In this document: one piece after another, positions 10,886-10,988 of the stretch
Numbering within the stretch: position 1 is the stretch's first letter
How the letters are laid out: each line of letters opens with the position of its first letter
Virus record (IMG/VR): IMGVR_UViG_3300044797_000185
Span: 53,837-117,836 of that record
Origin: a virus
Strand: one strand, 5' to 3'
DNA: 64,000 nucleotides
Position numbers and translations under genes: made by a program
Notes under the pieces: model-generated
What the model saw: only the letters and a program-made list of their open reading frames with translations
Told to the model about the DNA's origin: nothing
The model's database searches: none

Positions 10886-10988
10886 GCTGAGGTAGCTCAA
10901 TGGTAGAGCAGTTGTTTTGTGAGCCTAAAATTGCGAGTGGGCTCATATAAACAACAGGTTGCAAGTTCGAGTCTTGTCCTCAGCTCCA
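10886..10988 (+). tRNA. tRNA-Thr(UGU) interrupted by a 28-nt insertion in the anticodon loop
   Basis: Acceptor GCTGAGG/CCTCAGC, U73, CCA; D-arm GCTC/GAGC; stem GTTGT/ACAAC; TT-TGT-[10921-10948]-AA; T-arm GCAAG-TTCGAGT-CTTGT. Confidence 0.85.

Follow-up and report, generated by a model that had tools for sequence, protein, structure and literature searches.

The DNA stretch analyzed here, referred to below as the window, comprises the final 64 kb of the 117.8-kb IMG/VR virus record IMGVR_UViG_3300044797_000185 (36% G+C; estimated completeness 61%). Its genes lie on the + strand, and two tRNA genes sit between an open reading frame (ORF) of 66 amino acids (aa; 10560–10760) and another of 60 aa (10996–11178). 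The present work concerns the second of these tRNA genes, at 10886–10988, which is interrupted within its anticodon. Judging from its sequence, it is a tRNA-Thr(UGU) gene carrying a 28-nucleotide (nt) insert at 10920–10947 or, equivalently, at 10921–10948. The parts of the gene, together with a gene for a T4-type RNA ligase 1 (Rnl1) located farther downstream, are as follows.

10886–10919, + strand: 5′ exon of tRNA-Thr(UGU), nt 1–35, containing the acceptor 5′ strand, the D arm, the anticodon stem 5′ strand and U32, U33, U34 and G35 (Rfam alignment; alignment to the ortholog at L005:3496-3568)
10920–10947 (10921–10948 equivalent), + strand: 28-nt insert, placed in the register of a 2-nt 3′ overhang (28-column gap relative to L005; register arithmetic)
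10918–10927, + strand: 5′ arm of the hairpin, containing anticodon bases U34, G35 and U36 (minimum-energy folds)
10928–10937, + strand: end loop of the hairpin, 10 nt (fold)
10938–10947, + strand: 3′ arm of the hairpin (minimum-energy folds)
10948–10988, + strand: 3′ exon, containing U36, A37 and A38, the anticodon stem 3′ strand, the variable loop, the T arm, the acceptor 3′ strand, U73 and CCA (Rfam alignment, sequence)
60537–61667, + strand: T4-type RNA ligase 1 (Rnl1), 376 aa, candidate sealing enzyme (PF09511; alignment to PDB 2C5U)

The interrupted tRNA (10886–10985) matched the Rfam tRNA model RF00005 with 60.0 bits (E 1.7e-10; gathering score 29) over the full model, positions 1–71, and the anticodon loop appeared as a local insertion, with 31 letters where the model expects 3. 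ARAGORN missed the gene in bacterial mode, and in intron mode it returned a 28-nt intron; its output includes an isoleucine reading of the loop, UUUAUAA. All stems are paired (acceptor 7/7, D 4/4, anticodon 5/5 and T 5/5, with one G-U pair in the T stem), the D loop and the T loop (GTTCGA) are intact, and CCA is encoded at 10986–10988. A scan for promoters and terminators around the tRNAs gave nothing above chance. The original prediction, made for this DNA before the present analysis, had described a cloverleaf with CCA and a 28-nt insert in the anticodon loop, and the Rfam match, the ARAGORN intron mode and the intact stems agree with that description.

To define the identity of the gene and the boundaries of the insert, we compared the locus with those of related phages. 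The helicase encoded downstream of the tRNAs (11530–12984) is 80% identical to that of a complete 192-kb relative, L005, in which the same unusual tRNA(UAU) is followed by an uninterrupted tRNA-Thr(UGU) with the loop UUUGUAA; the helicase gene adjoins them there too. Through the two tRNAs and their spacers, the window and L005 align base for base except for a clean gap of 28 columns in the anticodon loop. The exons differ by one extra D-loop base and by three compensatory pairs, of which the T stem holds two and the anticodon stem one, and none of these differences damages a stem. Two further records, L313 and L315 (helicases 76% identical), likewise carry an uninterrupted tRNA-Thr(UGU) with the loop UUUGUAA adjoining a long-armed tRNA(UAU); the helicase homologs P0002–P0005 show 82% identity. 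The tRNA-Thr(UGU) gene is kept in three of the four related records examined and is missing in the fragment L314.

If the 28 nt are taken out after letter 4 or 5 of the loop, UUUGUAA results; if they are taken out after letter 2 or 3, the result is UUUAUAA. This arithmetic is the one put forward in the original prediction, which had left the anticodon ambiguous between the two outcomes. Because the orthologs are uninterrupted and all read UUUGUAA, and because the alignment gap is a clean 28 nt, the identity is settled as Thr(UGU); the isoleucine reading is ruled out by orthology, and the mature loop should be UUUGUAA. The threonine assignment made earlier stands as well, with G1-C72 and C2-G71, with UGU followed by A37 after removal, and with threonine orthologs. 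ACA is the commonest threonine codon of the phage (43% of threonine codons; 36.7 per 1000 codons), and a working tRNA-Thr(UGU) should therefore be useful to it.

The fold of the 103-nt RNA was then calculated. The minimum-energy structure, at −40.1 kcal/mol (z = −4.25), is a cloverleaf in which the anticodon arm forms a helix of 17 bp that contains a single bulged U and is capped by a 10-nt end loop; none of 200 shuffled sequences was as stable. In this predicted fold the insert pairs with the anticodon and lengthens the anticodon stem into a continuous helix; the two arms, 10918–10927 and 10938–10947, form 10 bp including two G-U pairs, just as had been proposed from the letters of the sequence. 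According to the model, the precursor, with its anticodon buried in the helix, is unable to decode.

The window also encodes an enzyme of the kind that could rejoin the two exons. The product of the gene at 60537, already pointed out as an Rnl1 in the original prediction, matches PF09511 with 70.5 bits (cut-off 28.3), and its residues 58–361 align to residues 52–357 of 375 in T4 Rnl1 (PDB 2C5U; E 1.4e-11). By these matches it appears to be a full-length T4-type Rnl1 that has both the nucleotidyl-transferase domain and the C-terminal tRNA-specificity domain. T4 Rnl1 joins a 5′-phosphate to a 3′-OH and naturally acts on nicks in tRNA anticodon loops. A kinase of the AAA_33 type (the sole kinase family searched), RtcB and RlaP were not found in the 117.8-kb record, which is an estimated 61% of the phage genome.

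RNase III makes cuts that leave a 2-nt 3′ overhang, and the resulting ends are a 5′-phosphate and a 3′-OH. We numbered the 35 letters of the interrupted loop from nt 32; in this numbering, the paired letters of the hairpin obey i + j = 35. Cuts after letters a and a + 28 that leave a 2-nt 3′ overhang satisfy 2a + 28 = 36, which gives a = 4 and, on geometry only, the product UUUG|UAA. A blunt cut (a = 3) gives UUUAUAA, unlike the loop of the orthologs. The register of a 2-nt 3′ overhang therefore places one predicted cut after G35 (10919) and the other after the A at 10947. The shortest helix on which E. coli RNase III acts has 11 bp separating the cut from the tetraloop (PMC1540722). The minimal product of such a reaction is 2 × 11 + 4 + 2 = 28 nt, equal to the length of the insert.

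In the pathway that we propose, the gene would be transcribed into a precursor, and a double-strand-specific nuclease, most likely the host RNase III, would cut both strands at these two bonds with a 2-nt 3′ stagger. The 28-nt hairpin would be released, leaving a 3′-OH and a 5′-phosphate that face each other within a 7-nt anticodon loop. The phage Rnl1 would then seal the nick to give the loop UUUGUAA, identical to that of the uninterrupted orthologs, and the mature tRNA would presumably be used in translation. We thus tentatively favor the reading that the insert is a protein-spliced hairpin mini-intron in the anticodon of a phage tRNA-Thr(UGU), removed by an RNase III-type cut and Rnl1 sealing, although we judge the chance that it is correct to be somewhat below even.

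To examine how widely such inserts occur, we ran pattern scans for tRNAs with 20–45-nt inserts between the D and T arms. These returned a mixed set consisting of archaeal and giant-virus introns at 37/38, a family with 21–22-nt inserts, tRNA-like RNAs lacking an anticodon, and only three hairpins of the type found in the window, which are too few for statistics. Two further tRNA-Thr(UGU) genes contain anticodon-masking hairpins of unrelated sequence, 30 nt long in L125 and 42 nt long in L165. In L125, a marine phage-like contig with six tRNAs, the hairpin obeys i + j = 39, the 2-nt 3′ overhang is the only register giving UUUGUAA, and the cut is separated from the end loop by 10 pairs and one mismatch (11 stacked positions). 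L165 comes from a phage of 342 kb that has 28 tRNAs and encodes an Rnl1; its 42-nt insert fits a 2-nt overhang and a blunt cut alike. Neither L125 nor L165 has proteins in common with the present phage in the stretches compared, and neither has a candidate nuclease gene beside the split tRNA. In species genomes, the intact interrupted tRNAs belonged mainly to archaea and had 37/38 introns of the ordinary kind; most bacterial cases were in metagenome-assembled genomes (MAGs) of candidate phyla or on short MAG contigs, together with two cultured Microcoleus genomes. The broader idea that phages possess a protein-only form of tRNA splicing, in which an anticodon hairpin of about 28 nt is a substrate for host RNase III and a phage Rnl1 rejoins the halves, we consider rather unlikely.

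The scans also revealed other tRNA-shaped genes with altered anticodon loops. The 21–22-nt inserts form a separate family in phage-like tRNA arrays (L119, L049, L193, L090 and L039), with up to three such tRNAs per array, for example at L119:7387-7481, 12009-12103 and 12108-12203 and at L049:4116-4208, 6447-6555 and 6576-6668. They consist of a 4–5-bp hairpin with a CAGAC-like or CAAACA-like loop and, after it, a tail such as ACAAG, and do not fit the register of a 2-nt overhang. In IMG/VR loci (L142, L144, L170, L177, L181, L190, L206, L235 and L239), many tRNA-shaped phage genes have the anticodon loop replaced by a domain of 40–50 nt, a hairpin followed by a conserved ACAGCAA motif, and have no usable anticodon. 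In addition, a 1.2-kb contig binned with a Saccharibacteria MAG (L441) encodes a type I tRNA in which a 32-nt insert makes a perfect palindrome of 17 bp across the anticodon, closed by a GATC loop; a cut leaving a 2-nt 3′ overhang would give CUUAGAA there.

Known classes of insertion do not account for the 28-nt element. A group I intron was rejected, as 28 nt, a length insufficient for any ribozyme, compares with a ribozyme core (P3–P8) of roughly at least 200 nt, and an E-value scan of 10500–11300 against Rfam (E up to 10) found no ribozyme, intron or other family matching the insert. A bulge-helix-bulge intron has a 3-nt bulge on each strand with a 4-bp helix between the two, and is usually located at position 37/38. 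The predicted fold here is a continuous helix with a single 1-nt bulge, and a splice at 37/38 would leave G37, unlike the orthologs. Both of these negative assignments had been anticipated in the original prediction. An EndA-type endonuclease (PF01974) was not found in the 117.8-kb record, and a peptidoglycan transglycosylase gene in the phage points to a bacterial host. Finally, a repeated mobile element was rejected: there is no second copy of the insert in the 117.8-kb record, no exact match in IMG/VR, no match with up to three mismatches in five related records, and none in 185,579 species genomes. A search of a GenBank phage collection gave a single match, of 16%, to the neighboring tRNA.

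The region upstream of the tRNA pair differs between the window and L005. In the window, this slot (9720–10760) is occupied by an HNH nuclease gene (9720–10556) and the 66-aa ORF, whereas the corresponding slot of L005 (L005:2024-3364) encodes an RlaP RNA-repair nucleotidyltransferase, a 59-aa ORF, a tRNA-Met and a tRNA-Phe; the two sequences become similar again some 10 nt ahead of the tRNA(UAU). The possibility that the HNH nuclease targets insert-free tRNA-Thr genes, with the insert conferring immunity, is unsupported: 12 loci with relatives of the HNH gene have no tRNA within 3 kb, which is a weak test, the relatives being at most 59% identical over the best segment. The adjacent tRNA (10775–10863) has the anticodon UAU (codon AUA, isoleucine) together with an extra arm of 19 nt; the loop of this arm spells GAU, which is the anticodon of the major tRNA-Ile. 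An extra arm of this kind is present in 13 of the 22 distinct tRNA(UAU) genes in the fetched loci (examples are in L005, L313, L014, L033, L055, L086, L089, L094, L114, L215, L235 and L247), always with GAU in the arm loop and with covarying stems. Downstream, a calcineurin-type phosphoesterase gene (12977–13621), 2 kb from the interrupted tRNA, is directly followed by a circularly permuted tRNA-like RNA (13654–13777) that could be a tRNA mimic; it gives a sub-threshold match to YrlA, a bacterial Y-RNA-like family (29.3 bits; gathering score 69; E 1.6e-4). The phage has a fourth tRNA outside the window (G000:C1:13998-14070; 43.7 bits in Rfam), which ARAGORN missed and which adjoins a tRNA-Asn.

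Several observations weigh against excision by RNase III and sealing by Rnl1. Above the predicted cut, the hairpin has eight standard pairs and a 10-nt loop, compared with the 11 bp for E. coli RNase III. The end loop could stack through three purine-purine mismatches capped by a UUGC tetraloop, and only with such stacking would 11 levels be reached. The register test is weak, in that a hairpin near the center of a 7-nt loop gives few possible overhang values, and in the window loop letters 4 and 5 both give the same product. A Thr-like tRNA in L277 has a 24-nt hairpin that would need an overhang of 3, 5 or 7 nt. An RNase III gene was not found in the 117.8-kb record. The Rnl1 gene is also present in an insert-free close relative; the ligase therefore predates the insert and is not specific to it. 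The earlier proposal of nuclease excision followed by Rnl1 sealing fits the geometry and the presence of the ligase gene, but the ligase does not single out the insert. Lastly, this record is the only one in which the insert was seen; it is missing from each of the four related records examined.

This last observation also favors the main rival explanation, a recent inactivation of the gene, which we regard as tenable if somewhat unlikely. In this case, a small palindromic DNA, arising from a replication error or as a tiny mobile element, would have inserted into the anticodon loop and inactivated this copy; the host tRNA-Thr would serve the phage, and the gene would have had no time yet to decay. 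The L314 fragment is without any tRNA at the locus, so the gene may be dispensable, and the region upstream of the tRNAs, with the HNH slot that differs from L005, has been remodelled recently. However, apart from the insert the gene shows no damage, and we found no pseudogene-like decay in stems, T loop, D loop or CCA. A very recent inactivation would look the same as an intact gene. Other evidence argues against inactivation: the insert is central in the anticodon and pairs with it, its removal restores the ortholog loop exactly, and unrelated hairpins of similar size occupy the same place in other phage tRNA-Thr(UGU) genes, in arrays that are otherwise intact. Nor does the hairpin behave as a repeated mobile element across the searched data. 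The preference of the phage for ACA and the conservation of the tRNA-Thr gene in most of the related records point in the same direction.

Splicing might also be carried out by a different enzyme, such as a single-strand- or hairpin-specific endonuclease of phage or host, with end healing if needed and sealing by Rnl1. This is consistent with a cut-out stem of only eight standard pairs, with the failure of L277 and of the 21–22-nt family to fit a 2-nt stagger, and with the calcineurin-type phosphoesterase gene downstream of the tRNA. We nevertheless consider it distinctly unlikely, given that the record yielded none of the repair enzymes searched for (AAA_33-type kinase, RtcB, RlaP) and no EndA-type endonuclease, that the interrupted tRNAs of L125 and L165 have no candidate nuclease linked to them, and that relatives of the neighboring HNH gene never adjoin tRNAs in the 12 loci. 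Very unlikely, in our view, is a role for the unspliced RNA as an anticodon-masked tRNA look-alike, either a decoy for an anticodon nuclease or a tRNA-binding defense protein, or a regulatory RNA. Burial of the anticodon in a stable helix would suit such a role, tRNA-shaped phage RNAs without a usable anticodon are common in the IMG/VR loci, and the same phage encodes the YrlA-like RNA. However, a decoy has no need of an insert whose removal restores a perfect tRNA-Thr loop, and the exons are those of a decoding tRNA conserved in this phage family.

If excision by RNase III and sealing by Rnl1 does take place, it would represent a third route to tRNA splicing, one that uses two ordinary enzymes, and Rnl1, a ligase in wide laboratory use, would have a regular function in biosynthesis in addition to repairing damage. 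Maturation of the phage tRNA would then be confined to cells making the phage ligase, and until that point the anticodon, a target of tRNA-cutting defense nucleases, would stay hidden. The locus is a good test case, because it combines an intron-free relative sequence, cuts predicted to a single bond (after 10919 and after 10947), a 103-nt precursor and a ligase gene in the same window.

Self-splicing is, to our knowledge, regarded as the only way in which bacteria and their viruses remove tRNA introns, and we know of no case in which RNase III products are rejoined into a functional RNA. In full-text literature searches we found no description of hairpin mini-introns, or of splicing by RNase III plus a ligase, for bacterial or phage tRNAs. 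Group I introns in bacterial and phage tRNA genes are likewise inserted in the anticodon loop, but the present insert is too small for their ribozyme core. The archaeal and eukaryotic introns processed by EndA/TSEN are similarly short, lie in the anticodon loop, pair with the anticodon and are removed by a protein nuclease and a ligase; the insert described here differs in having no 3-nt bulges and no 4-bp central helix, and in its position, 35/36 or 36/37 instead of 37/38. In the T4 repair system formed by PrrC, Pnkp and Rnl1, a ligase of the same type seals a nick in the anticodon loop. There, however, the break is inflicted by the host, the end is a cyclic phosphate and Pnkp is needed, whereas here we propose a programmed excision that would leave ligatable ends; a Pnkp-type kinase was not found in the 117.8-kb record by the AAA_33 search. 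The RNase III substrate T7 R1.1 and its minimal form uR1.1 (Pertzev and Nicholson 2006, PMC1540722) resemble the precursor in presenting a double-stranded hairpin, with a 2-nt 3′ overhang and a 28-nt piece proposed here, although the window hairpin has only eight standard pairs above the proposed cut. The closest published match is provided by the tRNA genes of Lak megaphages, which contain “enigmatic” short introns, including one in tRNA-Thr(TGT), for which no mechanism was given (Devoto et al. 2019, PMC6784885). Those introns, too, are short, interrupt the anticodon loop and do not belong to group I, and their boundaries were defined by alignment of interrupted with uninterrupted copies (PMC6784885). 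Compared by description only, the Lak threonine insert is itself tRNA-like, whereas that of the window forms a simple hairpin of 28 nt, paired with the anticodon.
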